Source of the DNA: a candidate division FCPU426 bacterium
GTDB lineage: Bacteria; Oederibacteriota; JAAXVQ01; JAUVAV01
Assembly (NCBI GenBank): GCA_040756875.1
Contig: JBFLYH010000002.1
Location: forward strand, 574,526 to 638,525
Direction: 5' to 3'
Length of the DNA stretch: 64,000 bases
This document shows positions 1,651-41,056 of this stretch, piece by piece. Position numbers and translations under genes: made by a program. Below the pieces are notes generated by a model, which had not been told where the DNA came from, searched no databases, and worked only from the letters and a program-made list of their open reading frames with translations. Positions within the stretch are counted from its first letter, which is position 1; every line of letters starts with the position of its first letter.

Positions 1651-1741
1651 ATATTATCCCGGGAGGTGATGATCGTCGGTTGAGTATCGTTGTTTTTATT
1701 CCCGTTAAGTAGTTCTTGTTGCGGAAAGATCAATCTTGTAT

Positions 1742-1797
1742 TCCCCTCCCCAGGATTTGGTGGGAGGGGAAAATCCTCTCCCGCCAGGGGAGAGGAA
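1742..1797. repeat. REP-like palindromic pair (CCCCTCCC..GGGAGGGG / TCCTCTCCC..GGGAGAGGA)
   Basis: Two adjacent intergenic GC-rich hairpins; same style as 8916-9036. Confidence 0.5.
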
Positions 1798-1867
1798 TAC
1801 AACTGCAGAAAATCGGTTTTCCTCAACAGAAAATAATTATAACGCTATCCCCGCGCAAGGGAAAGGA

Positions 1868-3127
1868 TTAGTGCCTGGTTTTCATTACGACAGCCTTCTT
1901 CAAGGGCGTGGTTCGCTCGGCCAGGGCCGTGCGGAAGACCAGGCGGTAGAGGTAAACACCGGGTGCGACGTCCCGGCAATCCCAGGCGCTCCGGCTGTAC
2001 CCGACTTCCGGGTGGTCTTCGGTCCAGCGGCAAACGCATTCCCCCAGCATGTTGTAGATCTCGAACCTGACCTGGCTCGGCGCTTCCACGGCAAACCGGA
2101 AATAGACGCGGCCCTGGTTGGCCGGCTGGGGATAAGCCATGACATCAACGTCGAAGCGCACGGCGGTGGCAGCGGCAGAACAGGTTTGGGTCGAGGTAGG
2201 CGTGCCGGGTAAAGGAGTAGCCGGCGTAGCCGTCAGGCTGGGAGTCGCCGCAGGCGTGCCCGTGGAGGTCCCGGTCAAAGCGGGGCTGCTTTCCAATGTC
2301 GGTGAAGGCGTCACTGACGGGGACGACGTGGGCGAGTTCGTCGGCGTAGCGGTTATCGTAGATGTCATGGTTAGCGTAGGCGTCAGGGTCACGGTAGGTG
2401 TCATGGTCACAGAGGGCGTCGGAGTCGCCGTAGGCGTCACGGTAAGCGTAGGCGTGGTCGTCAGGGTCGGGGTAGGGGTGGAGGTCTGGGTGGGTGTAAA
2501 GGCAGGGCCTGAAATATAAATCGCCAGGGTGTTGTTCGGACCGAGGCCGTCCGGACTAAAGGGGTTGGGAAAGGGCGCATCGGCTTCTTTGTACCAACGC
2601 GTGCCTGGGATGGACGTGCTAGCCCGTATCTCGGTCATCTGGATCGGATCATGGATATCAACGCACAGAAAGTATTTTTGTCCGGGCAGGATGGGAACCG
2701 CGGGATTCAGGGTGTAGGTGTTCCAACCATCATGGGCGTTGGCATACCCGGTTGAAGACAGCAGGGTTTCCGGCCAGTTGGAAGCAGTGTAGGCCGTATA
2801 GACCGCCACGGCCACGTCCGGGTCAAGATACCATTCGCAATCCAGATCGACCGAAATACTGGTGGCGAGAAACCCTGTCGTGGCTTGAAAGACACTGCCC
2901 CTGATTGCGGAACTGAACGCTTCCGAATTATTGCTGCTGGTGTTTCCCAATTGCTCCGCCCGGGCGTTGGCCAGGCAACCCAAGGTCACAAGCAGGCAAA
3001 ATAACAGCACCCTGGTCCGCGCCTGGGTGCGCAGCCGCCGGCATTTTTGCGAACCCGGATTGGCAGGCGCAAGACCGCCTGGACGACGGCCGGACAAACG
3101 GGGTGGGTTTAAAACCTGCACAATCAC
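1868..3127 (-). CDS. Secreted protein: beta-rich N-domain, Thr/Pro linker, T9SS-type-A/FlgD-like C-terminal domain
   Basis: Signal-like VLLFCLLVTLGCLANARA, long TPT repeats, C-terminal AYPQP..IYNMLG..W..VAPGVYLY..KKAVVMK. Start uncertain (GTG 3127 overlapping the kdsB stop, or GTG 3010). Confidence 0.7.
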   Translation of the reverse strand: MIVQVLNPPRLSGRRPGGLAPANPGSQKCRRLRTQARTRVLLFCLLVTLGCLANARAEQLGNTSSNNSEAFSSAIRGSVFQATTGFLATSISVDLDCEWYLDPDVAVAVYTAYTASNWPETLLSSTGYANAHDGWNTYTLNPAVPILPGQKYFLCVDIHDPIQMTEIRASTSIPGTRWYKEADAPFPNPFSPDGLGPNNTLAIYISGPAFTPTQTSTPTPTLTTTPTLTVTPTATPTPSVTMTPTVTLTPTLTMTSTITATPTNSPTSSPSVTPSPTLESSPALTGTSTGTPAATPSLTATPATPLPGTPTSTQTCSAAATAVRFDVDVMAYPQPANQGRVYFRFAVEAPSQVRFEIYNMLGECVCRWTEDHPEVGYSRSAWDCRDVAPGVYLYRLVFRTALAERTTPLKKAVVMKTRH

Positions 3128-3930
3128 TTGTGGCCGGCCAGTCGGCGCCCCCGAGCCCGGGACGCCCCCAGTCGGCGCCCCCGAACCCGGGACGCCCCCA
3201 GTCGGCGCTCGGCGAGCTTGAGATCCGCCGGCGTGTCCACGGCCAGGGTGCCGCGGGCCACGGCTACCACGCGGATGGCTACGCCGTGTTCCAGCACCCG
3301 CAACTGCTCCAGTTGCTCCATTTTTTCCAGGGGCGTGGGCGACCAGCGGGCGATTTGCAGCAGGAGGTCGCGGCGATACGCGTAGAATCCGAGGTGCAGG
3401 CGATAGGGATCGCTCCGGCGGCCCGCAGGGCGCGGATCGCGGATAAAGGGAATGGCAGAGCGCGAGAAATACAGGGCATTGCCGGCCCGGTCGCACACTA
3501 CCTTGACCCGGGCCGGATTGTGCAATTCCTCCGGCGGAAACGGCGCGGACAAGGTGGTCATCCGCAACCCGCGCTCGGTCAGGAAAGGCTTCACCAAAGC
3601 GTCCAGATCGCGGGGATTCACGAAGGGTTCGTCGCCCTGGATGTTCACCACCACGTCGCAGCGCTCGCGGCGCGCCACCACGGCCAGGCGGTCCGTGCCC
3701 GAGGCGCACGTTGCGGGCGTCATGACCGCTTCCCCGCCGAACGCCCGCACGGCGCGGACAATGCGCTGGTCCTCGGTGGCCACCAGGAGACGCGTCAGGA
3801 TTTTGGACTGTTTGGCCCGGCGCCACACGTGCTCGACCATGGGGCGTCCGGCCAGCAGGGCCAGGGGCTTGCCCGGAAACCGGGTGGACCCCCAGCGGGC
3901 CGGGATGACGCCGAGCACGCGCAGGCTCAC
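3124..3930 (-). CDS. kdsB: 3-deoxy-manno-octulosonate cytidylyltransferase
   Basis: IPARWGSTRFPGKPL, VNIQGDEP, EQLEQLR, VDTPADL motifs; GTG start overlaps upstream stop. Confidence 0.95.
   Translation of the reverse strand: MSLRVLGVIPARWGSTRFPGKPLALLAGRPMVEHVWRRAKQSKILTRLLVATEDQRIVRAVRAFGGEAVMTPATCASGTDRLAVVARRERCDVVVNIQGDEPFVNPRDLDALVKPFLTERGLRMTTLSAPFPPEELHNPARVKVVCDRAGNALYFSRSAIPFIRDPRPAGRRSDPYRLHLGFYAYRRDLLLQIARWSPTPLEKMEQLEQLRVLEHGVAIRVVAVARGTLAVDTPADLKLAERRLGASRVRGRRLGASRARGRRLAGHK
3138..3208. repeat. 30-bp tandem repeat (~2.4 copies) in the kdsB 3' end
   Basis: ccagtcggcgcccccgaRcccgggacgccc at 3138 and 3168, partial third copy at 3198. Confidence 0.9.
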
Positions 3931-4463
3931 GCTTTTTTTTCCTTGCTCGGAGGCTGGTTCTGCCCGGAAAGGATGCGTTCGATGAGATGGGTGCTGCTCT
4001 CGCCCTCGACCAGCGGGATGGTCACCACCTGGCCGCCCGCGGCTTCCACGGTCTCGCGGCCGATGACTTTGTCTTTGGCCCAATCCGCGCCCTTGACCAG
4101 CACCTGGGGCTGCAGTTCCGCGATCAGGGCCGCAGGATCGTTCTCGTCGAAGAGCACGACCAGGTCCACGCACTCGAGGGATGCTAAAACCTCAGCCCGC
4201 GCCGCTTCGCTCTGAATGGGGCGCTGCGGCCCCTTGATGCGCCGGACCGAGGCGTCGGTGTTGAGGCCCACGACCAGCGCGTCGCCCAGGCGGCGGGCCG
4301 CGGCCAGATAGCGCACGTGCCCGGGATGCAGCAGGTCGAAGCAGCCGTTGGTGAACACCACCCGGCGCTGCTGGTTCCGCCATTCCTGCACCCGTTCGCG
4401 GGCGCCGGCCCGGCCGAGGATTTTGTCGGCGGCGTTCCGGGGGACGCTGAGGATTATTTCCAC
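3927..4463 (-). CDS. rfaE2: D-glycero-beta-D-manno-heptose 1-phosphate adenylyltransferase (HldE domain II)
   Basis: VFTNGCFDLLHPGH, VGLNTDASV..KG..RP, LVKGADW. Confidence 0.95.
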   Translation of the reverse strand: MEIILSVPRNAADKILGRAGARERVQEWRNQQRRVVFTNGCFDLLHPGHVRYLAAARRLGDALVVGLNTDASVRRIKGPQRPIQSEAARAEVLASLECVDLVVLFDENDPAALIAELQPQVLVKGADWAKDKVIGRETVEAAGGQVVTIPLVEGESSTHLIERILSGQNQPPSKEKKA

Positions 4464-5452
4464 GGCTCCTCCGCGATCAATCGTTTGAGTTCAGCCTGGT
4501 TGGTAGTGGCCACGCCCACCTCGGCGACCGTGATGCCGGCCGCGCAGTTGGCCGCCACCGCGGCCTCGCGGAAATTCCCGCCCGCGGCCAGCGCCAGGGT
4601 CAGGGTGGAGATCACGGTGTCGCCCGCGCCGGACACGTCGTAGACCTCGCGCGCGAGGGTGTGGATGTGCGAAACATGCCCGCCGCGTTCGAACAGGGAC
4701 ATGCCCTCTTCCCCGCGCGTAACCAGCACGGCCTGGCAATCCAGCGCGTGCAGGAGCTTCTTGCCCGCGGTCAGCAGGCTCGCGCGGTCGCGGATGGGCG
4801 TTTGGGAAGCCTGGCTGGCTTCGTTCTGGTTGGGCGACACCAGGGTGACGCCGCGGAATTTCCGGATGTTCTCAGGCTTGGGATCGCCGGTAATGATCCG
4901 CTGCTGGGCCTGAGCGAGGCCGATCACGCCCTGCGCAAACGCCTCGGTGAGCAGGCCTTTGTTGTAGTCCGAAACCACCACCGCATCCACGCGCTTCATG
5001 CCCGCGCTCAGGAGCTCTAAAAGTTCGTTTTCCAGCCGCCGGCCGAGGGGCAGGGGCTTTTCCCGGTCAATGCGCACCACCTGCTGCGAGTGGGCAATGA
5101 CGCGGGTCTTGGTGATGGTGGGGCGCGTCCGGTCGCGCAGCACCCAGTCCGTGCGCACGCCCTGGCGCTTGAGCATCGCCAGCAGGCGGTCGCCGGTTTC
5201 GTCCCGGCCCACCACGCCCGCCAGAAACGCCTGGCCGCCCAGGGCCCGGATGTTGTTGGCCACGTTGGCCGCGCCGCCGGGCAGGGCGTTCTCGCGCTGC
5301 ACGTGCACCACCGGAATGGGCGCCTCGGGCGAAATCCGGGACACTTTGCCCCAAATGTATTCGTCCAGCATCAGGTCGCCCACGACCAGGATTTTTTTGC
5401 CCGTGAACTTGTCCACCAGGCGCTTGAGCTTGGCGGCGGAAACGTTTTTCAT
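4454..5452 (-). CDS. rfaE1: D-glycero-beta-D-manno-heptose-7-phosphate kinase (HldE domain I)
   Basis: VVGDLMLDEY..RISPEAPIPV, GGAANVA, DVSGAGDTV. Confidence 0.95.
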   Translation of the reverse strand: MKNVSAAKLKRLVDKFTGKKILVVGDLMLDEYIWGKVSRISPEAPIPVVHVQRENALPGGAANVANNIRALGGQAFLAGVVGRDETGDRLLAMLKRQGVRTDWVLRDRTRPTITKTRVIAHSQQVVRIDREKPLPLGRRLENELLELLSAGMKRVDAVVVSDYNKGLLTEAFAQGVIGLAQAQQRIITGDPKPENIRKFRGVTLVSPNQNEASQASQTPIRDRASLLTAGKKLLHALDCQAVLVTRGEEGMSLFERGGHVSHIHTLAREVYDVSGAGDTVISTLTLALAAGGNFREAAVAANCAAGITVAEVGVATTNQAELKRLIAEEPWK

Positions 5453-6214: not shown

Positions 6215-7351
6215 CTACTTCCCGACATCAACTACTACCGCATCCCTTAATACGACGTCTATCGTCCCGATGATGATGGCGCTTTTGACCAGCACGGGCA
6301 CGCGGCGGACGTCGTCGGTGAGCCAGATGTTGATCTCGCCCTTGCTCTGGAACACGCCCTCGAATTTCATCTGCGGCTGGACCACGATGCAGTTGAACTC
6401 CCCGGCCGGCACCCGGACTTTTTCCCGGCGCACGGATTTGACGATCACCTCGTAGGATTTGCCGTCGTCCGCGACCACGGGAATCGTCAGTTCCTGGCCG
6501 ACGGGAGGCGCCACGGCCCGGTAAAAATAAAACTCGGACAGCACGTCCTGGGTCAGGGGCGCGGCTGGCACACGGGTCCGTCCTTCGTCTTTGATGACCT
6601 GGTTTTGGACCTGGTCGTAGATCAGGACCGAATCGTTGCTGTAGCCGCCCTCGCGCAGGTGTTTTTCATAGCGCCAGGAAAACAACCCGGCCGCGTCGAA
6701 GAAGGATTCGATGCGGTCCCTGACCTTGAAGAACCACTCGAAAGCCGGGTGCGTGCGCGCCGTGGCGATCAGATGCAGGGTCTGCCGGCCGTTCATGATC
6801 GGCCCGGGTTCCACGGACAGCGTGGCGAACCCCGCGGCAATGCCCAGGTATTCGACCGAAAAAAGCAGCTTCTCGCCCGGCGCAAAGGCCTGGTTGGGAC
6901 GCTGCGGGAAAATTGCCTGGACCGCGGGCGTGGGTTGCGGCGTCAAGGGTTGCGACGCAGGATGGCCGCCGACCGTCGCCGTGGCCGCCGGCGTCGGCGC
7001 GGGCAGAACCCCTGGAACCACGGCTGCGATTCCGCCCAGTTCCAGCACCTGGCCCGGATGGATCAAATCCGGATTGGCGATGCGGTTGCGGGCCGCCAGT
7101 TCGGGGTAGCGCAGGGGATCGCCGAGCAGGCGGCCGGAGATGTGCCAGAGGGTGTCGCCGGCCACCACGCAGTAGGTCGTATTTTCCGACGGCACTGCGG
7201 GCGTAGGTTCAGGCAAAGGCTCGACGGCAACCGGAGTCGGCTCCAAAGTCGGCACGTCCGAGGCTTTAATGATCTTGAAATCCGTGCGGCCGGTGGCGCA
7301 TCCCGCGACGATCAGGCAGACGCCGATTAAAATCCACAGATTGGTTTTCAC
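6215..7351 (-). CDS. Lipoprotein with LysM and DUF3108-like domains
   Basis: Lipobox IVAGC; LysM YCVVAGDTLWHIS..NPDLIHPGQVL; GEKLLFSVEY..VPAGEFNC..IWLTDD..PV typical of DUF3108. Confidence 0.8.
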   Translation of the reverse strand: MKTNLWILIGVCLIVAGCATGRTDFKIIKASDVPTLEPTPVAVEPLPEPTPAVPSENTTYCVVAGDTLWHISGRLLGDPLRYPELAARNRIANPDLIHPGQVLELGGIAAVVPGVLPAPTPAATATVGGHPASQPLTPQPTPAVQAIFPQRPNQAFAPGEKLLFSVEYLGIAAGFATLSVEPGPIMNGRQTLHLIATARTHPAFEWFFKVRDRIESFFDAAGLFSWRYEKHLREGGYSNDSVLIYDQVQNQVIKDEGRTRVPAAPLTQDVLSEFYFYRAVAPPVGQELTIPVVADDGKSYEVIVKSVRREKVRVPAGEFNCIVVQPQMKFEGVFQSKGEINIWLTDDVRRVPVLVKSAIIIGTIDVVLRDAVVVDVGK

Positions 7352-8328
7352 TTCCCGCTCCTTATGGCCTTCCGCACGGCCTGGGCCGCGGTTTCCGGTT
7401 CCAGCCCGTCCAGGCCGAGCACTTCCACGCGCTCGCCCAGGGGGCGCCAGCGGACCTGACCGGTCACGCCCGCACTCGGGTACAGCGCCACCACAGGCCT
7501 GCCCAGGGCCGCGGCCAGGTGCGCGGGCCCGGTGTTGCCCGCCACTACGGCATCCGCCCGGGCGATGAGCGCAGCCAGCTGCGGCATACGGATCGTTTCC
7601 CGCAACACCCAGGCGGCGGCGAACACCGCGGCGTTCCGCTCCTGTTCAAGGCCAGCGCCCGTAACCAGCACGCGCGTGTCCGGATCAGCCAGCAACAGCC
7701 CGGCCAGCTGCCGGTAATTTTCCAGGGACCAGTTGGCCGAAGAGCCGCGCCCGCCCGGATGGATGACAACCAGGCGCTGGCCGCCCTCCAGCCCGCGCTG
7801 CCGCAAATCCGCCTGGGCCCACGCCAGGTCCTCGGGCCGCGCGCTCAAGCGCGGCGGCTCCAAGACCGGCGACAGCCCCAGCGCCCGCAGCAGGTCCAGG
7901 TTGTAATCCGCCTCGTGCCGCTCGGCTTTGGCCCGGCTGTGGGGCACGCGCGTGGTGTACAGCCAGGACCAGAGCCTGCGGCCGGTTCCCACCCGCTGCC
8001 GCACGCCGGCCCGCCACACGGCCCAGGAAACGCGGGCATCGGGAAAAACCAGCAGCCCCGCGTCGAATTTCCGGCTGGCGATCAGCTCGACCAGGCGGCG
8101 GAATCCGCGCCGGCCCGCGTGCGCGCCTTCTGCTTCGTACGCCAGCACTTCGTCCACATCCGGATGACCGGCGAAAATTTCCCGGGTGTAATCCGAAACC
8201 AGGCAGGCGACATGGCTCCCCGGAACCAGGCGCTTGATGGCCGCGGCCACGGGCAGGGCCAGCAGGCTGTCGCCCAGGGCGTCCGTGCGGCACACCAGCC
8301 AGCGCCGGGGCTGGTCATTCATGGCCAA
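7348..8328 (-). CDS. Glycosyltransferase family 9 (LPS heptosyltransferase-like)
   Basis: RTDALGDSLL, HPG..S..W, NTGPAHLAAA. Confidence 0.9.
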   Translation of the reverse strand: MAMNDQPRRWLVCRTDALGDSLLALPVAAAIKRLVPGSHVACLVSDYTREIFAGHPDVDEVLAYEAEGAHAGRRGFRRLVELIASRKFDAGLLVFPDARVSWAVWRAGVRQRVGTGRRLWSWLYTTRVPHSRAKAERHEADYNLDLLRALGLSPVLEPPRLSARPEDLAWAQADLRQRGLEGGQRLVVIHPGGRGSSANWSLENYRQLAGLLLADPDTRVLVTGAGLEQERNAAVFAAAWVLRETIRMPQLAALIARADAVVAGNTGPAHLAAALGRPVVALYPSAGVTGQVRWRPLGERVEVLGLDGLEPETAAQAVRKAIRSGK

Positions 8329-8893
8329 GCGCTCCGAGAATATGGCGCCCTGCTTCGGTCAGGTCTGCGGCAATAAAATCCGGCCGGGGCCCATTCCCGA
8401 ATCCCTGGTCTCGGGTGGCGGCGCCGTAGCCGGTCAGCACGAGAATGGTCTTTAATCCTTGTTTGGCGCCGAATTCAATGTCCGAGGCTTTGTCGCCCAC
8501 CACCCAGCTTTTCGCCAGGTCCAGGCCCAGGTCGCGGGCAGCGGCCAGCAGCATGCCGGGCGCAGGTTTTCGGCAGTCGCAGGCGCGCGCGTAGGCGGCC
8601 ACGCTGCCTTGGGGATAATGGGGGCAATAGTAGACGCCGTCGAGCCCGGCACCGGCCGCGGCCAGCAACTCCTCAAGCCGGGCGTTCACGCGCCTGACCG
8701 TGGCCTCGTCGAAATACCCGCGCGCCACGCCGGACTGGTTGCTGACGACCACGGCCGCGAATCCTTCCTGCCGCAGCAGACGGATGCCCTCGGCCGCGCC
8801 CGGCAGCAGCACCACGCCCGCGGGATCGGCCAGGTACTCGGCTTCCTGGATGATCGTGCCATCGCGGTCGAGAAAGACTGCGGGTTTGGACAT
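8315..8893 (-). CDS. gmhB: D-glycero-D-manno-heptose 1,7-bisphosphate phosphatase
   Basis: FLDRDGT, SNQSG, CPH..CDCRKP, VGDK..D. Confidence 0.95.
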   Translation of the reverse strand: MSKPAVFLDRDGTIIQEAEYLADPAGVVLLPGAAEGIRLLRQEGFAAVVVSNQSGVARGYFDEATVRRVNARLEELLAAAGAGLDGVYYCPHYPQGSVAAYARACDCRKPAPGMLLAAARDLGLDLAKSWVVGDKASDIEFGAKQGLKTILVLTGYGAATRDQGFGNGPRPDFIAADLTEAGRHILGALGHE

Positions 8894-8915
8894 TGTCGCC
8901 TCATAATAAAATTCT

Positions 8916-9036
8916 CCCCTCCCTTGAGGGGAGGGGATGAAGGGGCGGGTGTGCAGTAACTGAAAATTGTTCAATTGCTCTGCCCGCAAAGCGGGCTACA
9001 CCCACTCCCTCGCCCTCCCCCCTCAAGGGGGAGGGG
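8916..9036. repeat. REP-like inverted repeat element
   Basis: ccctcccttgaggggagggg...gggtgt paired with acaccc...ccctcccccctcaagggggagggg between msbA and gmhB. Confidence 0.7.
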
Positions 9037-9045
9037 TTAAACCGT

Positions 9046-10803
9046 TCATCCTTCCGCCTGGCGGCCCCTCGCCATGCCGAACTGGAGGCGCACCAGCTTC
9101 TTGTACAGCCCGTTGCGCCGCATCAATTCGGCGTGGCGGCCGCGCTCCACAATGCGCCCCTGGTCCAGCACCACGATCTGGTGGGCGTGCTGGACCGTGG
9201 ACAGGCGGTGCGCGATCACCAGGGTGGTGCGGTGACGCATCAAGCGGTCCAGGGCCGCCTGGATGAGCCGCTCGGACTCGGTGTCCAGGGCCGAGGTGGC
9301 CTCGTCCAAAATAAGGATCGGAGGGTTGCGGAGCACGGCCCGGGCAATGGCCAGGCGCTGGCGCTGGCCGCCGGATAGCCGCACGCCCCGTTCGCCGATC
9401 AGGGTCTCGTACCCCTGCCGGGTCTGGAGGATGAACTCGTGCGCGTTCGCGGCTTTGGCCGCCTCCTCAATCTCCCGCTGGCTGGCGTCCGGCTTGCTGT
9501 AGGCGATGTTGTTGCGGATGGTGTCGTTGAACAGGATGGTGTCCTGCGTGACCAGGCCGATGTTCCCCCTAAGCGACGCCAGGGTCAGGTCGCGCAGATC
9601 GTGGCCGTCGAGGGTGATGGCGCCTTCGGTCGGATCGGCGAAGCGCGGCAGCAGGTCCACCAGCGTGGTTTTACCCGCGCCCGAGCGCCCCACGATCGCC
9701 AGGATCTCGCCCGCGCGGGCGGTGAGCTGGATCTGCTGGAGGACCAGCCGGTCGGACTGGTAGCCGAAGCTCAGGTTGTGGAATTCGATCTTGTGCTTGA
9801 ACGCGCGCAGGGGCTTGGCGCCCGGCCGGTCCTGGATAAGCGGCGGCCGGTCCAGCAGCTCGAACACCCGCTGCGCCGCGGCCAGGGCCGACTGCACCGT
9901 GTTGTTGATGCCCGCCATGTTCTTGACCTGCGGATAGAGGGAGGCCAGGGCGCCGAGAAAGGCGAAAAACGTGCCGGTGGTGGATTCGCCCCGGATGACC
10001 TGGGTGCCGGACCACACGATCATGGCGCAGATGCCGAACGAGCCGATGAACTCCATCAGCGGGCTGGAAAGCGCGGTCCGCCTGAGCGCGCGCATGGTCA
10101 CGTCGAAGTACCGCTGCATCTCCTCGCGGAAGCGCTTGATCTCGAAGGCCTGCATGCCGAAGGCCTTCACCACCCGGATCCCGGTGATGCTCTCGTGCAG
10201 CACGGTGGTCACGTCGGCCATTTTGGCCTGGGCCTGGTGCGACAGCTTGCGCAAGGTCTTGCCGATGCTGATCACCGGATAGACCGCCACCGGAAACACC
10301 ACCAGGGACAGGAAGGCGAGCTGCCAGTTCAGGTAGAACAGGAGCGTGACCAGGGATACGATGGTCAGGATGGCGCCCAGCAGGCGCCCCAGCACGTTCG
10401 AAACCGCAGCCTGCATCAGCGTACTGTCGTGGGTCACGCGCGAGATCAGCATGCCGCTGCGCTGGCCGTGGAAGAAACTCAGCTCCTGCCGCATGAGGTG
10501 GCCGTAGAGCTGGTTGCGGACGTCCATGACGATGCGGTTGCCGATATGGTTGATCAGGTAGTCCTGGCCGTAGGTGCTAAAGCCTTTCAGCAGATAAGTG
10601 AGCACGATGGCCACGGGCACCAGGCGCAGATAGAACAAGGCCTGGACCTGGTCGGGATTGCCGAAAACCTTGTCCAGCACCGGCTTGATCAGGTACATGC
10701 CCATCGCGGTCAGGGCCGCGGTCAGGGCCAGGCACAGCAGGGCGGCGAACACGCGGCCCGCGTACGGCCGGGCGTACCGCAGCAATCTCAGATACAGTTG
10801 CAT
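9046..10803 (-). CDS. msbA: Lipid A export ABC transporter (MsbA-like)
   Basis: TM domain plus GRSGAGKT, LSGGQRQR, ILDEATS, IAHRLS; LPS gene context. Confidence 0.85.
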   Translation of the reverse strand: MQLYLRLLRYARPYAGRVFAALLCLALTAALTAMGMYLIKPVLDKVFGNPDQVQALFYLRLVPVAIVLTYLLKGFSTYGQDYLINHIGNRIVMDVRNQLYGHLMRQELSFFHGQRSGMLISRVTHDSTLMQAAVSNVLGRLLGAILTIVSLVTLLFYLNWQLAFLSLVVFPVAVYPVISIGKTLRKLSHQAQAKMADVTTVLHESITGIRVVKAFGMQAFEIKRFREEMQRYFDVTMRALRRTALSSPLMEFIGSFGICAMIVWSGTQVIRGESTTGTFFAFLGALASLYPQVKNMAGINNTVQSALAAAQRVFELLDRPPLIQDRPGAKPLRAFKHKIEFHNLSFGYQSDRLVLQQIQLTARAGEILAIVGRSGAGKTTLVDLLPRFADPTEGAITLDGHDLRDLTLASLRGNIGLVTQDTILFNDTIRNNIAYSKPDASQREIEEAAKAANAHEFILQTRQGYETLIGERGVRLSGGQRQRLAIARAVLRNPPILILDEATSALDTESERLIQAALDRLMRHRTTLVIAHRLSTVQHAHQIVVLDQGRIVERGRHAELMRRNGLYKKLVRLQFGMARGRQAEG

Positions 10804-10876
10804 GGTCGGGGGTCCTCGTTTAGCCGCTCCGGCCGGGCGTGGGGCCCGGCCGGAGGCTCTTGGCGTTGCGGGATAA

Positions 10877-13108
10877 TTACTCGGGAATCCGGATGATGAC
10901 TTCCACCCGCCGGTTTTTGGTGCGCCCGGCGGCCGTGCGGTTGGTGGCAATGGGCTTGGTCGGCCCCCAGCCGTTGATGGTCAGCTGGTAATCCGGCACG
11001 TTCTGCTCCTCCACCATGAACCGGCGCACAGATTCGGCCCGCACCAGGGACAGCTTCATGTTCAGGGCCTTGGGGCCGGTGGAATCCGTGTGACCTTCGA
11101 GCACCGCGTCGCAACTGGGCGAATCCAGGATCAGGTAGGCGCTCTTGATCACCTTGTCGAACATTTCGGCCGTGAGATAGGCCTTGCCCGTGTCGAAAAG
11201 AATGTCGCCGACCTTGATGGTCATGCGGTTCTCGTTGGGGTACACCTGCCCCAGCACGGGCCGCAGCTTGTCCGCGATCAGGACCTGCGAGCCGTCCGCT
11301 TCCAGATAGGACAGTTCGTAGCGGTAGCTGCCGTTGTTGGCCACCACGGTGCCGCTGTCGTCTTTGGAATCCCAGGCGAACGCCTTGAACAGCTCCTCCT
11401 GGGAGCGGTAGGTGCGGATCACCTGGTTGCTGGCGTCGAAGATGTCCAGCTTCCACTCTTTGGTGCCTTTGACCGGGTCCTTGATCGAGAAATAGACCTT
11501 GTCCGGATAAACTTCGTAATTCTTGCTGGTGTAGAGTTTGGGAATGGTGTCCACGATCACCAGCGTGCCGGAGACCGTGCGGGTCGTCCCGTCCATCAGT
11601 TTGAGGTCAAGGGCGTATGGGTACTGCTCCTTGGAGGACACCCGCTTGGTGCCGTCCTTGGCGTTCCAGCTATAGGACGGTTCCGGATTGCCCGGGCCTT
11701 GGTAGCGCTTCAGGACGCGGCCGCGGCGGTCGGTGATTTGCAGGTTCCAGGTGCTGATCGTGCCCGCGTCCTCGGGAATCTTGGGCACCAGGGTCAGGGT
11801 GCCGGTGAAGCCCACGAACGTGCCGTGCAGTTTGGGGATCTTTCCGGTCAGCGTAGGCTGGGCCGTGGGACGCTGGGTGGGCGAGGGCGTAACCGTCGGC
11901 GTCACGGTCATCGTGGGCGTGGCGGTCGGCGTGGGCGTGGCCGGCGGCGCCACCAGGGCGCCGGTGTGCCAGTCGACCGAAATCCGCTGGTTCCACTCGG
12001 GATTCTGGCCCGGATAGGTCCCCAATTCGCGGCCGTAATAGGCGTAATCGATGTTGATGAAGCTCGTGACCAGCGAAATGCCGGCCGTGGGATAGCCCTG
12101 GCTGAATCCGCCGCGCAGGGCGATGAGGCCGGAAAGCAGGAATTCCAGCCCCACGCGAAGCTTGGACATGTTGATGGCCGTGGCGTTGTTGGCGCTGTTG
12201 CGGAACTCATTGTCACCCTGCCAGTTCAGTTCCACCAGGTCCACGGCCAGCACCGTGTCCAGGTCCTGGAAATTCAGCCACCAGGGTTGGTAGGCGAACC
12301 CCAGCTTCAGGTTCGGGGTGATGACCTCGTCGAGCAGGCGGCTGTAAATGTCAGCCATCACAAGGGCCACGGTGATCTCCTCGGTCGGCTGGTACATGAA
12401 GCCCAGGTCCAGGCCGCCGCCCCACTCCATGGTCAGGTTCAAATCATCCAGGTCGAGCACGCTGCGGTTTTCTTCCTGCGATTTGGCCTGCTGGATGGCC
12501 TTGACCGTGAACCCCGCGGCCAGGTAGCCGAACTGGGGAATGTCCCAACCCCAGCCCCAGGACATGTTTTCGATCAGGCCGGCCCGGATGGTCCAGGAGG
12601 CTTCGGGCAGCAGGATGGCTCCGGTTTCCAGCAGCGCCTCGTCGAACAGCCACAAGCCCAGCCCGAAATTGGGCTGGATGTACGACAAACTGTTCTGGTT
12701 GAGCATGTGCATGCGCGTGTGGGAGAGCCGGTCCACGGCCTCCACGGTGTCCGGCGACAGGCTGCCGCCCATGAAATTGGTGAAGGCGTCGACATTGCCC
12801 AGCAGGAACATCAGGTTGTCGAAAGAACGGATGTCCGTGCCGAACAGGAGCTTGGGAAAGGTAAACCGCCAGTAATTCAGGCGCGCCAATCCGGCCGGGT
12901 TGTAGAACAACGCATTCTCGTCGTCCGCCACGGCCGTGAAGGCGCCGCCCATGCCCAACGGCCTGATGCCTTCAACGTAAATCCTTTCGGTGTTATCGCC
13001 CAGGATGAACTGCTGGCGCCGGGTTTCCCCGCCCCAGACGGTTGCCGCCCATCCTGCGGCCAAAACGGCCAGGCAGGCGATTGCGAACGCTCGGTAGCCA
13101 CGCGGCAT
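10877..13108 (-). CDS. Outer-membrane protein: PorV/TraF/FadL-like barrel + Thr/Pro linker + two FlgD-like Ig domains + OmpA_C
   Basis: GIRPLGMGGAFTAVADDENALFYNPAGLA; two W(N/D)xKD..G repeats; ILFDTGK..EGHTDS..NMKLSLVRAESV..NRRVEV. Confidence 0.75.
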   Translation of the reverse strand: MPRGYRAFAIACLAVLAAGWAATVWGGETRRQQFILGDNTERIYVEGIRPLGMGGAFTAVADDENALFYNPAGLARLNYWRFTFPKLLFGTDIRSFDNLMFLLGNVDAFTNFMGGSLSPDTVEAVDRLSHTRMHMLNQNSLSYIQPNFGLGLWLFDEALLETGAILLPEASWTIRAGLIENMSWGWGWDIPQFGYLAAGFTVKAIQQAKSQEENRSVLDLDDLNLTMEWGGGLDLGFMYQPTEEITVALVMADIYSRLLDEVITPNLKLGFAYQPWWLNFQDLDTVLAVDLVELNWQGDNEFRNSANNATAINMSKLRVGLEFLLSGLIALRGGFSQGYPTAGISLVTSFINIDYAYYGRELGTYPGQNPEWNQRISVDWHTGALVAPPATPTPTATPTMTVTPTVTPSPTQRPTAQPTLTGKIPKLHGTFVGFTGTLTLVPKIPEDAGTISTWNLQITDRRGRVLKRYQGPGNPEPSYSWNAKDGTKRVSSKEQYPYALDLKLMDGTTRTVSGTLVIVDTIPKLYTSKNYEVYPDKVYFSIKDPVKGTKEWKLDIFDASNQVIRTYRSQEELFKAFAWDSKDDSGTVVANNGSYRYELSYLEADGSQVLIADKLRPVLGQVYPNENRMTIKVGDILFDTGKAYLTAEMFDKVIKSAYLILDSPSCDAVLEGHTDSTGPKALNMKLSLVRAESVRRFMVEEQNVPDYQLTINGWGPTKPIATNRTAAGRTKNRRVEVIIRIPE

Positions 13109-13118
13109 AAAGGGCCTC

Positions 13119-13922
13119 CTACTGATTGGCAAGAATCTGCCAGGGGTCGAACTGGTTGATGACATCCTCGATCAGCGAACGGGCCATGCTGTTGACGGCC
13201 GCCACCTGCAGACGCTGCAGCGAGGCGGCGATGTCGCTTTGCATGGCCGTAAGGAAAAACGTCGGCGGCTGCTGGCCGCTGCTGTTGATCAGCCACAGGA
13301 ATTCGTTGGGCAGCTGCGCCAGCAGGGCCGGATCCAGGCCCAGGGCCGCGAGTTCCGGCGTGCCCTGCACCAGCGTTTGAATGGAGAAATCCGCGGAAAT
13401 CTGTTCCAGGCGCGCCACGATCCGCAGCAGGTACAGCACCCCTGTGGTCAGGTTAAGGTTGACGTCCTTGGAGCGGTAGGGGCCGTCAGTCTGGCCCAGC
13501 ACCACCGGATCCAGCACGGCGATCATTTCGGAAAGGATGTCTTCGACATCCGCATAGGTAGCCACGCCCCACTGGCTGGGAACCAGGAATTCGTAGTTCT
13601 GGTTGGATCCGGAATCGCTGTTAACAGCCTTGATGAACGTATTGGCGAACTCTCCCAGGCTGAAACCCTGCTGCCCCATCCGGGCCTGCGCGTAACCAAC
13701 GCGCGCTTCGGAGTCCCGCGGATTGTTCTCGCCCGCCTGCCGGAAATACTTGACCGCCAGCGCGTAATCCCCGCGTTCCAGCGCGGCCTTGCCGTCCGCG
13801 ACCAGAACGTGGGCATTGCTTTCGCGGCCGTCGCTGTGCAATCCGGCCAGAAAATTGCAACCAGCCGCAAGACCGGCCGTGGCCAGCAGCAGCCCCAATC
13901 CCAGAAAGCGTATGCGCGCCAT
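13119..13922 (-). CDS. Lipoprotein with TPR-like repeat
   Basis: Lipobox LAAGC; GKAALERGDYALAVKYF..NPRDSEARVG. Confidence 0.7.
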   Translation of the reverse strand: MARIRFLGLGLLLATAGLAAGCNFLAGLHSDGRESNAHVLVADGKAALERGDYALAVKYFRQAGENNPRDSEARVGYAQARMGQQGFSLGEFANTFIKAVNSDSGSNQNYEFLVPSQWGVATYADVEDILSEMIAVLDPVVLGQTDGPYRSKDVNLNLTTGVLYLLRIVARLEQISADFSIQTLVQGTPELAALGLDPALLAQLPNEFLWLINSSGQQPPTFFLTAMQSDIAASLQRLQVAAVNSMARSLIEDVINQFDPWQILANQ

Positions 13923-37013: not shown

Positions 37014-37778
37014 TTACCGCACGATCGCCACTTTTTTCCTCTGGTCCAGCAGGACCCGGCCATTGGCGTCTGTGATCTTGATCCGGCACAGGTAAATCCC
37101 CGGCGCCACGCCGGCTGCTTCCCACGCGGTGGTCAGGGTTTGGCCGCTGTTGTTCTTTCCTTCCTCAATCCGCGCCACCCGCTCGCCGGTCAGGTGATAG
37201 ATATCAATCTCGATCCTGCTCGCGCCCGGCACCGTGTATGCAAACACCACCCGGTCCCTCGCAGGGTTGGGATAGGCCAGGACCCTGCCTGCTGACACCC
37301 AGGGCGTGCCCGTGGGGGTCATGGTCAAGGTGGCGCTGTGGGTCGGCTGTAGGGTCGTCGTAATGCTGGGCGTGGGCGTGACGGTGGGTGAAGCGGTCCG
37401 GGTGTGGCTCGGCGTGGCTGTGGGCGTGGGCGAATCCGTCGGTGTATCGGTCGAAGTCTGCGTTTCCGTGGCAGTCAAGGTGATGGTGGACGTCATGGTT
37501 TCAGTCGGCGTCGGAGTCTCGGTCGGGCTGATGGTCACGGTCTCGGTAATCGTGGGCGTGGGGCTGATAGTCGCGGTTTCGGTGATTGTGGGCGAGAGGG
37601 TGGAGGTCGGGGAAATGGTGGATGTTGGCGTGATGCTGGGGGTGCAGGTAATGGTCGGCGAGGAAGCAATGCCAATGCCGATCTGCCAGACAGCCGAAAT
37701 CGTCGCGGCACTGGCAACACGAATGGCGGCGGTGCTCAGCGCCAAGCCGATCATACTCAACACCCATACCTTGCGCAT
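37014..37778 (-). CDS. Secreted Thr/Pro-stalk protein with T9SS-type-A-like C-terminal domain
   Basis: Signal peptide, short hydrophobic strand, ~120-aa T/P/S repeat, AYPNP..IYHLTG..W..VAPGIYL..KKVAIVR. Confidence 0.8.
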   Translation of the reverse strand: MRKVWVLSMIGLALSTAAIRVASAATISAVWQIGIGIASSPTITCTPSITPTSTISPTSTLSPTITETATISPTPTITETVTISPTETPTPTETMTSTITLTATETQTSTDTPTDSPTPTATPSHTRTASPTVTPTPSITTTLQPTHSATLTMTPTGTPWVSAGRVLAYPNPARDRVVFAYTVPGASRIEIDIYHLTGERVARIEEGKNNSGQTLTTAWEAAGVAPGIYLCRIKITDANGRVLLDQRKKVAIVR

Positions 37779-37804
37779 GCCTGTTGTACCTCGCGAACGC
37801 GTTA

Positions 37805-38461
37805 TCAGTGAACCTGGGCGCCAATGACGACATTAAAAAACTGTTCGTCGCTGCTGGAAACTATGGTCGGCGTCAACACCATGAAGCGCAGACTGCGTTC
37901 CGTCATCCCCGGAACCGGCTGCACATTGTAACCTTTAACGTTTTCAGGGTCGTCCGGATCAACATTGCTGTTGTCCCTGGCCAACACATCCGTGCCGGCC
38001 ACCAGGGGCATGCCGCTTAATACGTCATTGTCGCCGAAATCAGCTAGCACTAAATCCCTCGAATACCCGCCCGTAAAATCACTGGCCGTATCCAGTGGTT
38101 TGGTGAATATCGCCGCGATCACGCAGGTATCATAGCCCGCGGAACCCAGGGTCGGACCCAATATCCAGGCCGGCCCGCCTGCACTCGTAATCGTGGCCGA
38201 TACCGTGTAATCAACAACCGCATACCCATGGTTCGAAATCGTGCAGCGCGGCAATCCCTGCGGCTGATTTGAAAATACCGCACTACCCGGCGCCACCCAG
38301 CCAAAGTGCATGGAATTTGTTATCGCCACCAGATCAATCTCGCCATAGGCAACCGCAATTCCGATTGGCCAGGCAACCGATATTACGGGCGCGGCCGCCG
38401 CCATTGCGCCCATTCCCAGACTAGCCGCAAGAATCAACGAACACATTAAAGTTTTTTTCAT
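37805..38461 (-). CDS. Secreted beta-rich hypothetical protein (paralog A)
   Basis: Signal peptide; clear similarity to 38486-39133. Confidence 0.75.
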   Translation of the reverse strand: MKKTLMCSLILAASLGMGAMAAAAPVISVAWPIGIAVAYGEIDLVAITNSMHFGWVAPGSAVFSNQPQGLPRCTISNHGYAVVDYTVSATITSAGGPAWILGPTLGSAGYDTCVIAAIFTKPLDTASDFTGGYSRDLVLADFGDNDVLSGMPLVAGTDVLARDNSNVDPDDPENVKGYNVQPVPGMTERSLRFMVLTPTIVSSSDEQFFNVVIGAQVH

Positions 38462-38485
38462 CTCTGCACCCCCCCTTGAAGTCAG

Positions 38486-39133
38486 TTAACGCACCACCGC
38501 TCCGATGGTGACCGTGAATACTTGCTCTGGTTCAAACACCACCCCTGCCGGCGTCCGCACCAGAAACCTGAGGCTGCGCGTGCTGTCCAGCGGACTGACG
38601 GCAAAACCCTTGAGAATATCCGGGTCGTCCGGATCAGGCCGGGTGTTGTTCCGGGCCAGCACGGTATCCGTGGCCACTTTCGGCGCAGGGCCAACCACAT
38701 CCTCATTTCCAAAATCCGCCGTTTCCAGATCCCTGCCCCAGGGAAAGGGGATTTGCGATTCCAGGATCGGCGCAGTAAAAATGGCGGCAATCACGCATTG
38801 ATCCGGTCCGATATCCTCCAGGTGCGTGCCCAGGGTCCAGCCCGTGACCGCGGCGCTGACCGTGTAATCCACCGTGGCATAGCCGTTGTTTTGGATCGTG
38901 CAGCGGGGATTGCCTTCGATTTGGTTGGATAGGACCGCGCTTTCGGGCGCCACATAACCAAAATGCAGGTAATCCGGAACAATGGCCGAGAGATCAATGT
39001 CGCCGGCATCCAATGTGATCACGATGGGGTAATCCGGTTCGCCGCCCTCGGCAGCCCAACTCCAGGCGGCCAAGGCCAGACAGGCCAGACCGAGGCAGCA
39101 AAACCACGAGTTTCTTCTGCTTGAGTTTTTCAT
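38486..39133 (-). CDS. Secreted beta-rich hypothetical protein (paralog B)
   Basis: Shares HFG.VAP.SAV.SNQ..G.PRCTI.N.GYA.VDYTVSA, CVIAAIFT, DPDDP, RSLRF with paralog A. Confidence 0.75.
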   Translation of the reverse strand: MKNSSRRNSWFCCLGLACLALAAWSWAAEGGEPDYPIVITLDAGDIDLSAIVPDYLHFGYVAPESAVLSNQIEGNPRCTIQNNGYATVDYTVSAAVTGWTLGTHLEDIGPDQCVIAAIFTAPILESQIPFPWGRDLETADFGNEDVVGPAPKVATDTVLARNNTRPDPDDPDILKGFAVSPLDSTRSLRFLVRTPAGVVFEPEQVFTVTIGAVVR

Positions 39134-39250
39134 CCGTCTTGTCCGTTTGCTGGAGTCTGGCATCCTGAGGACTCTTGCTTTATAGATGATACGGAGGTGA
39201 GATTTATTTCGTTTTTTTAGCGGCAGGAGATTTTTTTAACAAACGGGGAT

Positions 39251-39892
39251 TTAACCGGTCAGCCCTCTGAATCCCTGGATAAAGAACCACGTTCCCGCCA
39301 ATCCTGCGGCCAGGCGGCCGATGACGCGGATGGCGGAAGAGCGGCTGAACCAGCCGATGAAAGGCAGCGGCAGGAGGATAAGGGAGGTGCCGACGAAAAA
39401 GGAGGTGAGGATCAGGAACCCGGCCCAGGGGCCGCCGCTGAGGCCGGCTTCGGCCAGGGCGGCCAGGAACGGCGGACAGATATTCAGGCCGGTCAGCAAG
39501 CCCAGCAGGAACGGGGTCTGCTTTTCCCAGTGCGCCGAATGAAGAACCCGGCACCAGGACCAGTGCGGAAAGCTGGCGAGCAGCGCATAGGCCAGCAACA
39601 ACAGGCCTGTGGCCAGGAACACTCCTCCTTGCAGCCAGCGGACCGAGGCCGCTGCCAGAAACACCTGCTGCCCCAGCCAGCCGGCGATCAGTCCCACGGC
39701 TGCGTAACCTAAAAAGCGGCCGGCGAGAAACCACAGGAAAGCGAGCAGGTTCTCCCTGCCTTCGCGCGCTTCGGCGCCGAAATACGGCGCGAGCAGGGGC
39801 AGGCACACGCCCAGGCAGGTGGGCGAAAGGGCCACGCCGAGCAGAAAGCCTTGAACCATCAAAACCGAGCCTGTCAATTCCATAAAACCCAC
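39251..39892 (-). CDS. DsbD_2/TauE-like membrane protein
   Basis: CLGVC, GR..GY, GLLTGLNICPP, FFVGTS; multi-TM. Confidence 0.7.
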   Translation of the reverse strand: MGFMELTGSVLMVQGFLLGVALSPTCLGVCLPLLAPYFGAEAREGRENLLAFLWFLAGRFLGYAAVGLIAGWLGQQVFLAAASVRWLQGGVFLATGLLLLAYALLASFPHWSWCRVLHSAHWEKQTPFLLGLLTGLNICPPFLAALAEAGLSGGPWAGFLILTSFFVGTSLILLPLPFIGWFSRSSAIRVIGRLAAGLAGTWFFIQGFRGLTG

Positions 39893-39970: not shown

Positions 39971-40855
39971 TTATTTCTCTCTGGCGCTCATTTTTTCTTT
40001 TTTGGATTGGTACATTTTCCGGTCGGCTTCGCGCAAGGTTTCGGTGGCGTCGCCGCAAGGATTGCAGGTCGCGTGCCCGATGCTGAGCGACAAGGTGAAA
40101 TCCACGCCTTCAGGCGGGTGTTGATTCCATTCCTCGACGGCGCTTTTCAGGCGGTCGATTTGCTTGGTCACGCCGTCTTCATCTGATTTGATCATGACGA
40201 CCAGGAATTCGTCGCCGCCCATGCGGAAAACCCAGTCCGTTTTCCGGCAGGATTGCGTGATCAAGCGGGCGGCGGCGCTTATGATTTTGTCCCCGGTCAA
40301 ATGGCCCAGGCGGTCGTTGACGTCCTTGAGGTGGTCCAGATCGATCACCAGAAAAGCCAGGGACTCGTTGCGGCGCTCGGCGCGCGCGATCTCCTGCGGG
40401 ATGACCTCGTTGTAAAAATGCCGGTTGTACAGGCCGGTCAGCGGATCGCGGATGGCCATTTCGCGCAATTTCCTGGCCTTCTCGTTCAGGTGGAAAATGA
40501 CGGTGTTGATGTTTTCCCACAGTTCCCGCAGCGGGTCCCGGGTGGCCTGCTTGAACACCGGGCAGGAAAAGCAACTGCGGTACTTTTCGACAAAACTCCC
40601 GCTGGGTTTATCCTCGCACAGCGTGCCTGCGCTCAGCCAGCAGCGATGTCCCCGGTCGCCATGCATCGGGCAATCGGTCTTGGAGCAATCCATTATTTCC
40701 CAGCACGGCAGGGGCGTAAAAGCCTTTTCAACCTGGCTCCAGGCCTGTTCCTGGGACAGGGTTTCTATCGAATCCCGGAGGTATTTTTCCAGATCCCGGT
40801 TGATAAGTTCAATCGCCTTCAGGAGGTCCTGGTTTTGCGGCTGGTTTTCATCCAT
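39971..40855 (-). CDS. Diguanylate cyclase with Cys-rich (two-CW-like) sensor
   Basis: DPLTGLYNR, RKTD I-site, GGDEF; CWE..C...CP..CW...GT.C..C..C. Confidence 0.88.
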   Translation of the reverse strand: MDENQPQNQDLLKAIELINRDLEKYLRDSIETLSQEQAWSQVEKAFTPLPCWEIMDCSKTDCPMHGDRGHRCWLSAGTLCEDKPSGSFVEKYRSCFSCPVFKQATRDPLRELWENINTVIFHLNEKARKLREMAIRDPLTGLYNRHFYNEVIPQEIARAERRNESLAFLVIDLDHLKDVNDRLGHLTGDKIISAAARLITQSCRKTDWVFRMGGDEFLVVMIKSDEDGVTKQIDRLKSAVEEWNQHPPEGVDFTLSLSIGHATCNPCGDATETLREADRKMYQSKKEKMSAREK

Positions 40856-40978
40856 GTTCGTCCGACTCTTTCCGCCTGGCATGCACCGTGATGATCTTAT
40901 TAGCGACAGGGGCACGATGGCCCTGAGCCGGCGCAACAACCCCCCGCCGCCATGCTGTCGGGATACACTCCGGCCTGC

Positions 40979-41056
40979 TAGCAGGGTGCTGAAAACCCAC
41001 ATAGATTCCGCTAGCACCCTGCTACCCCATGAAAAATCTCTGATTTTTCATGGGGT
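40979..41056. repeat. Double hairpin (possible IS-end remnant or terminator)
   Basis: tagcagggtgct/agcaccctgcta and accccatgaaaaatc/gatttttcatggggt. Confidence 0.55.

Follow-up and report, generated by a model that had tools for sequence, protein, structure and literature searches.

Introduction

Surface fibres in which each subunit is completed by a strand from its neighbour are known from chaperone-usher pili, from type V pili, and from filaments that Gram-positive bacteria and archaea build without a chaperone (TasA, cannulae and threads). Here three adjacent genes of a candidate division FCPU426 bacterium are described, which rather probably encode another appendage of this kind. The genes lie in a stretch of 64,000 nucleotides (contig JBFLYH010000002.1, positions 574,526 to 638,525), called the window below, and are named B, A and C in the direction of transcription. 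An initial annotation of the sequence had proposed that the products of A and B polymerize into a filament by donor-strand exchange, and that the product of C caps this filament and tethers it to the cell through a sorting signal like that of a type IX secretion system (T9SS).

In chaperone-usher pili PapH serves as the pilus terminator, and the tip adhesin has no donor strand. In the chaperone-free TasA fibre of Bacillus subtilis the accessory protein is TapA, whose N-terminus, according to the available text of two reports, resembles the TasA donor strand and has been modelled or shown to complement TasA (PMC9674648; PMC10151520). The subunits of type V pili, as described in the accessible part of one study, are made as lipoprotein precursors, are matured by proteolysis and donate C-terminal strands; one component, Mfa5, has a T9SS C-terminal domain and needs PorU (PMC8512630). 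In the literature covered, Mfa5 was the one precedent met with of a T9SS domain on a component of fimbriae. In archaea, the available text on cannulae describes subunits of the TasA superfamily that polymerize without helpers, aided by calcium, through N-terminal donor-strand complementation (PMC12518558), and that on the bundling pili AbpA likewise describes chaperone-free N-terminal donor-strand complementation (PMC9245690). No system equivalent to the one described here was met in the open-access literature searched (supplements and subscription journals lay outside its scope), which yielded only type V pili, reviews and unrelated work.

Results

The B-A-C gene module

All three co-oriented open reading frames (ORFs) of the initial annotation were found, on the minus strand, which also applies to all features given below for the three genes. 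Gene B (38486-39163) codes for a secreted subunit of 225 amino acids counted from the first ATG; the start at 39133 that had been proposed is the second Met codon, and is as possible as the first. Gene A (37805-38461) codes for a second secreted subunit, a protein of 218 amino acids with a predicted TasA-like beta-sandwich and an N-terminal extension. Gene C (37014-37778) encodes a protein of 254 amino acids, the putative 'strand-only' anchor. The intergenic spacers are 24 nucleotides (B to A) and 26 nucleotides (A to C) long. Each of the three proteins starts with an AXA-type signal peptide, as read by eye from the sequence without a prediction program. By the same kind of reading, A has no Cys at the cleavage region, and the LGLAC sequence of B is a non-canonical lipobox followed by the AXA site.

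A and B are paralogs, as had been claimed, with 98 identical residues out of 189 (52%, E=5e-56). Common to both are the cysteines of PRCT and CVIAAIFT, two acidic motifs (DFGxxDV and DPDDP) and a terminal hydrophobic strand. The two shared cysteines are a feature of A, B and their close relatives but not a hallmark of the family, since both are present in only 12 of the 43 members of the family alignment. By analogy with the cannulae, the acidic DFGxxDV/DPDD loops of the two proteins could bind calcium. When scanned against Pfam and NCBIfam, A and B matched no family at E<=1, apart from one meaningless match of 11.7 bits to a model with a cut-off of 619 bits. The FimA/Mfa families of Pfam had no match in A, B or the other family members.

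A scan of genome contigs revealed two related loci, designated L001 and L002. The order B-A-C was kept in both of them: a B-type gene and an A-type gene are followed by a gene for a signal peptide, a short segment, a Thr/Pro stalk and a sorting domain. The equivalents of C, at positions 6626-7396 of L001 and 6558-7433 of L002, agree with C in position and build. Co-occurrence of the three genes in relatives, named as a check in the initial annotation, was thus seen in 2/2 related loci. A search with a hidden Markov model of the family detected exactly two subunit copies apiece in the window, L001 and L002, and another pair of homologs carries the consecutive locus tags K8S19_12660 and 12665. 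The flanking genes are unrelated. In L001 they code for a glycoside hydrolase of family GH94, a solute-binding protein and a GH130 enzyme, in L002 for large proteins with sorting domains, and in the window for housekeeping functions. The conserved order together with the entirely different flanks indicates that the module consists of these three genes only. A quick tree placed the A-type and B-type genes from the window, from L001 and from a third contig in separate clades, with support values of 91 and 93 in the Shimodaira-Hasegawa-like approximate likelihood ratio test (SH-aLRT), and the window B grouped with the B gene of L001 (SH-aLRT 93).

The statement that no usher or chaperone gene is adjacent was borne out: among the seven neighbouring genes and 48 further ORFs of the window there was none for an usher, a chaperone, a sortase, a signal peptidase or a T9SS component. 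Genes for an usher, a PapD-like chaperone or a SipW-type peptidase were not found in the flanks of L001 or L002 either.

Predicted fold of A

A model of mature A was built by AlphaFold2 (AF2) from the 43-sequence alignment. It has seven strands, a mean predicted local distance difference test (pLDDT) of 93.3 and a predicted template modelling score of 0.87. Residues 1-22 of the mature protein, which include the N-terminal strand, belong to no strand assigned by DSSP in this monomer, with pLDDT values of 75-89.

The suggestion that A is beta-rich and pilin- or TasA-like was examined by a Foldseek search against the PDB, and the nearest solved look-alike was the TasA fibre (8aur_A; E=1.3e-4, probability 1.00, root-mean-square deviation 12.9), with low template modelling (TM) scores of 0.43/0.38. 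No other match reached E<=0.001. Among those that scored less well, many were donor-strand fibres: TLP-1b, CS20, the Pyrodictium cannulae, CfaB, PapA, PapK (in PapD-PapK), SafA, CupE, type 1 pili, FimA, Caf-like structures and the Sulfolobus thread. The cannula structures were at ranks 4, 9 and 14; CfaB, PapA, FimA and the Caf-like structures had E-values of 0.003-0.1, and pilin structures taken together were weak matches at 0.003-0.15. Mixed into the list were the unrelated N-acetylgalactosaminidases (ranks 5, 6 and 27, with low probabilities of 0.16-0.35) and staphylococcal SdrD, ClfA and FnBPA. In the ESM Atlas, structural matches included camelysin (PF12389) and DUF1102 clusters with TM scores of 0.47-0.49. 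From these models A likely has a TasA-like fold; membership of the TasA family is without sequence support.

The N-terminal strand as a family feature

Relatives of A are few. Among 5.8 billion proteins they form 11 clusters at 90% identity, and among 1.84 billion proteins there are 36 representatives at 50% identity. The family alignment comprises 43 members, and the N-terminal motif was counted in the 36 members that come from outside the window, L001 and L002. Conservation of this motif, on which the initial proposal depended, was found to be a feature of the family: after the signal peptide Y, F or W is present in 32/36 members, Ile two positions on in 31/36, and Val two further in 27/36. 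The corresponding strand of B, DYPIVITLDA (39005-39034; residues 44-53), has the typical aromatic-Pro-Ile-x-Val motif. The strand of A, PVISVAWPIGIAVA (38348-38389; residues 25-38), is the putative donor strand and is free in the model of A with C described below.

None of the 43 members matched a meaningful Pfam family; a single one had a weak match to CBM_56 (E=0.0036). The family profile compared with the sequences of the PDB gave one spurious match (E=0.14). The nearest clusters in the ESM Atlas are unnamed, and the phylum recorded for them (4-8 members per cluster) is mostly Elusimicrobiota.

Predicted complex between A and the N-terminal strand of C

Protein C has no globular N-domain, as had been noted. 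Its signal peptide (residues 1-24) is followed by a 16-residue strand, ATISAVWQIGIGIASS (37659-37706; residues 25-40), which is the predicted donor strand to A. Next comes a stalk (37299-37658; residues 41-160) in which 49 Thr, 20 Pro and 14 Ser account for 83 of the 120 residues. The protein ends with a C-terminal sorting domain of T9SS type A, Por_Secre_tail (37017-37298; residues 161-254). This domain, described earlier as YPNP-type and T9SS-like, scored above the curated cut-offs of both PF18962 (residues 169-237, E=3.9e-7, 30.7 bits, cut-off 27) and TIGR04183 (30.0 bits, cut-off 23). The C protein of L001 reached 28.3 bits with PF18962.

The multimer prediction that had been suggested for A and the N-terminal segment of the third protein was carried out with the full mature A, its own N-strand in place, and residues 25-60 of C. 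Trans insertion of the strand was predicted, with ipSAE (interaction prediction score from aligned errors) values of 0.89, 0.83 and 0.85 (median 0.85). All three controls, two unrelated 36-residue partners and one unrelated protein of 194 residues, scored 0.00. In the calibration of this score the mark was reached by 116/157 solved complexes and by 2/215 mismatched pairs, figures that are only roughly valid here, where our own alignments were supplied. The runs with A and C shared at least 91% of their contacts, and the pLDDT of the partner was at least 61. Since the family profile had no meaningful match to a solved chain, the score is not owed to a sequence-similar solved complex.

The entire interface with A is formed by residues 26-40 of C. 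In mature A numbering, the closest contacts are A191-C29/30, A190-C31, A188-C33, A187-C33/34/35 and A186-C34/35, so that the C segment runs antiparallel to the C-terminal strand of A. This strand, EQFFNVVIGA (37817-37846; residues 206-215), makes one wall of the predicted acceptor groove. The opposite wall is IDLVAITNSMHFGWVAP (38290-38338; residues 42-58), where mature residues 21-25 and 27-37 (full-length 42-46 and 48-58) contact the other side of the C strand. The C strand also touches residues 50, 52 and 54 of the facing sheet, in the core; residues 1-20 of mature A, its own N-strand, are absent from the predicted interface. The strand of C is placed by the model within the sandwich of A rather than along an edge. 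The predicted contacts have the geometry of donor-strand complementation, as found in chaperone-usher pili and, to judge from the available text of the two reports, in TapA-TasA (PMC9674648; PMC10151520). Anchoring of A by C through a donor strand is supported in silico.

Likeness between the strands of C and A

The mature N-terminus of C had been said to match that of A. An ungapped comparison of the first 14 mature residues of C with residues 25-38 of A gave a BLOSUM62 score of 38, which was reached by none of 500 shuffles, and a BLASTP comparison of the N-termini (residues 1-38) gave 17/39 identical residues with E=0.002. The strands of C and A in L001 scored 55 (0/500 shuffles). The likeness is restricted to the mature strand: the DNA of the signal peptides cannot be aligned, and the codons of the strands differ at synonymous sites. 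It did not, therefore, arise by recent gene conversion, and on the evidence of these sequences is maintained at the protein level. In L002 such likeness is lacking, so that mimicry is shown for two related genomes, those of the window and L001, and not for all three. Co-variation of the strands across genomes holds in these two close relatives and fails in L002, and it is not claimed here. A position-weight matrix of the N-strand, made from the 36 family members, was also applied to the C proteins and proved unusable, the Thr-rich stalk scoring highest in the window and in L002.

The N-strand of C also resembles an internal strand of the family (ATISGGWxLG...), located at about residue 104 in the B homolog of L001, about residue 94 in that of L002 and about residues 88-105 in A of the window. 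The scores of this likeness, 28 and 27, were reached by 12/500 and 6/500 shuffles and may reflect composition. The internal strand lies outside the predicted A-C interface. The TasA monomer is self-complemented by an internal strand before exchange, and by analogy the resemblance of C to the internal strand of the family might matter.

A natural fusion of subunits, stalk and sorting domain

One family member, P0012 (753 amino acids), contains three tandem family domains and, after them, a Thr/Pro stalk and a sorting domain of the same type as in C. Each domain is followed by a strand-like segment, about six residues past its last strand. The third segment directly precedes the stalk, which is the place of the strand in C. 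There is no domain after this segment, which argues that such strands serve the preceding domain. In an AF2 model of P0012 the first two segments form strands (E186-195 and E358-366), located 6 residues after strands E171-179 and E343-351, as a hairpin would require. The model is mediocre, with a mean pLDDT of 69.3 and with homologs aligned to repeat 3 only, and the region equivalent to the stalk of C has a pLDDT below 50. P0012 looks like a natural 'self-complemented concatemer'. A second fused or longer form was not found with A as query, which is weak evidence, and residues 1-545 of P0012 as query found P0012 only.

Neighbourhood of the module

Directly upstream of B, on the same strand, is a gene for a DsbD_2 thiol-disulfide membrane protein (39251-39892, minus strand; PF13386, E=2.1e-23), followed by one for a GGDEF diguanylate cyclase with a two-CW domain (39971-41017, minus strand; NF045718). 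Both are co-oriented with B, and links through disulfides or cyclic di-GMP are tempting; neither gene is near the module in L001 or L002. A role of disulfides with the DsbD_2 protein as part of the system was considered and dropped, given the 12/43 members with both cysteines and the different neighbours in the two related loci. Downstream of the module there are genes for a DUF116 protein and a metallophosphoesterase and the rpoN-hpf-PTS cluster. The segment 29427-34837 (minus strand) is a classic rpoN neighbourhood, with sigma-54, an S30AE hibernation factor, EIIA-2 of the phosphotransferase system (PTS), HPr kinase, a CofD-like protein and then a mannose-type PTS.

Two other genes bear on the envelope of the host. 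One (10877-13165, minus strand) encodes a protein of 762 amino acids with a FlgD Ig-like domain (PF13860) and a C-terminal OmpA domain, the other (7348-8328) a heptosyltransferase. Judged from their sequences, the OmpA-domain protein and the heptosyltransferase suggest a cell envelope with two membranes. An ORF running off the end of the window (1-1650, minus strand) has three CarboxypepD_reg repeats and an SdrD_B-like match, and its product is probably a surface protein. The module of L002 is surrounded by genes for at least four large proteins that have Thr/Pro linkers and the sorting domain seen in C (3-5062 and 7593-12547). Several of them have a common repeated domain with a 'GTPGAQPAGWYDE...AQIAYA' stretch, and one adds FG-GAP repeats.

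Exactly opposite the stalk of C lies a Val/Gly-rich ORF of 173 codons (37306-37827, plus strand), which is a mirror artefact of the ACN and CCN codons and no gene; similar shadow ORFs sit opposite the stalks of L001 and L002. In a rough pick, 46/56 ORFs of the window had minus orientation, and several of those picked on the plus strand resemble such shadows; this is an unusually long co-directional stretch. Rfam gave no match at E<=0.1 between 36500 and 41300, and a scan for promoters and terminators was no richer than shuffled sequence (1 versus 1.3 and 3 versus 3.0).

Discussion

Proposed assembly

The reading that we favour, and hold to be reasonably likely, is that B-A-C encodes a cell-surface appendage assembled by donor-strand complementation without chaperone or usher and tethered through C. 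A and B would be beta-sandwich subunits with a TasA-like fold, exported by the Sec pathway, each with a short N-terminal strand just after the signal peptide that would be unable to fold into its own domain. After removal of the signal peptide from C, its first 15 or so residues, the copy of the A strand, would enter A between the C-terminal strand (antiparallel) and residues 48-58 and complete the sheet in trans, as in the model of the complex. A would thereby be tied to the Thr/Pro/Ser stalk of about 120 residues and to the type-A sorting domain, which would fix the assembly to the outer surface. The free strand of A would enter the subunit that follows on the distal side, whether A or B, and the chain would grow outward from C. 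Because C donates a strand and cannot accept one, it would be the cell-proximal end. Whether its role is described as that of a TapA-like nucleator or of a PapH-like terminator, the sequence fits both alike. We infer the A-A or A-B linkage, and with it the length of the chain, from the same arrangement; we also infer the route of export through the outer membrane, anchoring by T9SS and a function in adhesion or matrix.

Several observations weigh against this reading. The evidence for an appendage is entirely computational. The fold assignment is weak in TM score (0.43/0.38 to TasA), all other Foldseek matches have E>0.001, and PF12389, PF13731 or any pilin or fimbrial Pfam family was matched by 0/43 members at E<=1. 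The predicted interface is no more conserved than the rest of A (0.52 versus 0.48, one-sided Mann-Whitney p=0.12), and of the 22 highly conserved positions 5 belong to it (Fisher p=0.45). The N-terminus of C in L002 has no significant likeness to its own A or B, 485/500 and 365/500 shuffles reaching the scores. In P0012 the third strand has a pLDDT below 50 and is unpaired in the model; the first two inter-domain strands are DSSP assignments, which are silent on which domain each pairs with, and the first 20 residues are either a signal peptide (modelled as a helix) or the N-strand of a truncated gene call. As for export, no sorting domain was detected in A or B in the Pfam and NCBIfam scans, which leaves them with no evident route across the outer membrane. 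A Pfam scan of the 64 kb window found no T9SS genes (PorU, PorV, SprA, PorK-N), and the C protein of L002 (23.0 bits) and P0012 (25.0 bits) score below the PF18962 cut-off of 27. Since T9SS is chiefly known from Bacteroidota and related groups, a match to its sorting domain need not point to T9SS in what may be another phylum.

Other readings of the locus

An arrangement without a fibre is possible, if on balance unlikely. B, A and C, one copy of each, would make an array of fixed length displayed on the stalk, B taking the strand of A and A that of C, and the tag-less A and B would cross the outer membrane as passengers of C, having been clipped to it in the periplasm. P0012, with exactly three domains per chain before the stalk and sorting domain, would suit such an array as well as it does an open-ended filament, and the array would also agree with the gene order, which parallels domain-domain-stalk, and with the exactly two subunit genes in 3/3 loci. 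The lack of a sorting domain or other export signal in A and B points the same way, as do their separate clades (SH-aLRT 91 and 93, quick tree), which would be expected of positions that are not interchangeable. Yet B keeps a well-conserved, typical N-strand, needless in a terminal distal subunit, which favours further chaining. Moreover, the strand of C copies that of A, so the A strand should fit the A groove and permit A-A chains. We know of no case of passenger export through T9SS, and this, too, counts against a fixed array.

Quite improbable, in our estimate, is the view that the shared N-segment acts in cis, as a recognition site for processing or export or as the first strand of A, and that C is an independent stalked surface protein which came to carry the same leader region and whose neighbours have no physical link to it. 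It could draw on the C protein of L002, which is without significant likeness to its A or B strand, on the interface not being enriched in conserved residues, and on the fairly high pLDDT (75-89) of the N-segment in the A monomer, where it may pack on the domain; neighbouring genes, besides, often pass binding prediction (7/44 blind neighbours). It is difficult to reconcile with an ipSAE of 0.85 against 0.00 in three controls and with a clean antiparallel register, obtained despite the similar strand of A itself being in the model. The likeness of C to A leaves out the signal peptide, C has nothing else N-terminal of its stalk in 3/3 loci, and the strand-like segment after the last domain of P0012 stands where an N-strand acting in cis has no domain. 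A reading of A and B as surface proteins that bind carbohydrate or cell wall, of the WxL or carbohydrate-binding module (CBM) type, and not as fibre subunits, seems to us very improbable indeed. Judged by features, the closest named cluster in the ESM Atlas is a WxL cluster (score 0.82, a lead only), the family has a conserved W-x-L-G motif, one of its 43 members matches CBM_56 weakly (E=0.0036), and the L001 neighbours are glycan-active enzymes. However, PF13731 is matched by 0/43 members at E<=1, there is no WxL or CBM structure in the top four Foldseek ranks, the N-acetylgalactosaminidases have low probabilities (0.16-0.35), and the flanks are not conserved between loci. Moreover, strand mimicry by C and the predicted complex would be left unexplained.

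Comparison with described systems

Taken as a donor-strand appendage, B-A-C has its nearest counterpart in TasA/TapA of Bacillus subtilis (tapA-sipW-tasA). In both, a secreted beta-sandwich protein would complete the next subunit by a donor strand at its N-terminus, which for A and B is a putative one, and neither has a chaperone or usher; the TasA fibre is also the best Foldseek match of A. Both have an accessory protein, cell-associated in the case of TapA and probably so in that of C, with a donor-strand-like N-terminus that would supply the first strand, for TapA as far as the available text describes it (PMC9674648; PMC10151520). The two systems differ in that there is no sequence relation (PF12389 in 0/43 members), that the TM score is 0.43 and that no gene for a SipW-type peptidase is nearby here. 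The host here appears to have two membranes, and a pair of paralogous subunits takes the place of a single one. TapA includes a folded immunoglobulin-like domain, whereas C consists only of strand, stalk and T9SS-type sorting domain.

With PapH-ended chaperone-usher pili the system would share the proximal end protein that donates a strand and cannot accept one, and the predicted antiparallel placing of the N-extension of the proximal subunit against the C-terminal strand of the more distal one. In contrast to these pili, there is no usher or PapD-like chaperone in the window, L001 or L002, C is without a pilin domain, and anchoring would be by stalk and sorting domain instead of by the usher. 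In its proposed working B-A-C resembles both TasA/TapA and PapH-ended pili; neither sequence nor gene context relates it to either.

Type V pili of Bacteroidia (FimA/Mfa1, with FimB/Mfa2 as anchors) are similar to the proposed assembly in being strand-exchange polymers of a two-membrane host with a dedicated anchor and terminator. A and B differ from their subunits by ordinary signal peptides and an N-terminal strand, and Mfa5 is a tip protein with a von Willebrand factor domain, not an anchor. The archaeal CanA/CanX and AbpA would share with A and B chaperone-free N-terminal donor-strand complementation, and cannulae are among the Foldseek matches of A, but no sequence relation was found, and the available text on cannulae describes no anchor of the C type (PMC12518558).

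Significance

If the proposed assembly is correct, B-A-C would add a fourth arrangement to the known donor-strand fibres, a chaperone-free, TasA-like strand exchange in an apparently two-membrane bacterium. The anchor would be reduced to a bare minimum of strand, stalk and sorting domain, and would be tied to a T9SS sorting signal. The module also poses the question of how subunits without a tag cross the outer membrane. One answer, which we put forward tentatively and consider doubtful, would be a new class of pilus in two-membrane bacteria. Here the tag-less subunits would be joined to the strand-only carrier while still in the periplasm, by donor-strand complementation; the sorting domain of the carrier would guide the chain, already folded, through a T9SS-like translocon and afterwards attach it to the surface. 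In that case strand exchange would assemble the chain and also be its export ticket, and P0012 would be a fused form of the same device. The system is very small and tractable, with two subunits of about 200 residues and a 15-residue peptide, and P0012 is available for comparison. For a family of proteins that has no name and comes from uncultured bacteria, with 36 representatives at 50% identity, it is a first functional lead.

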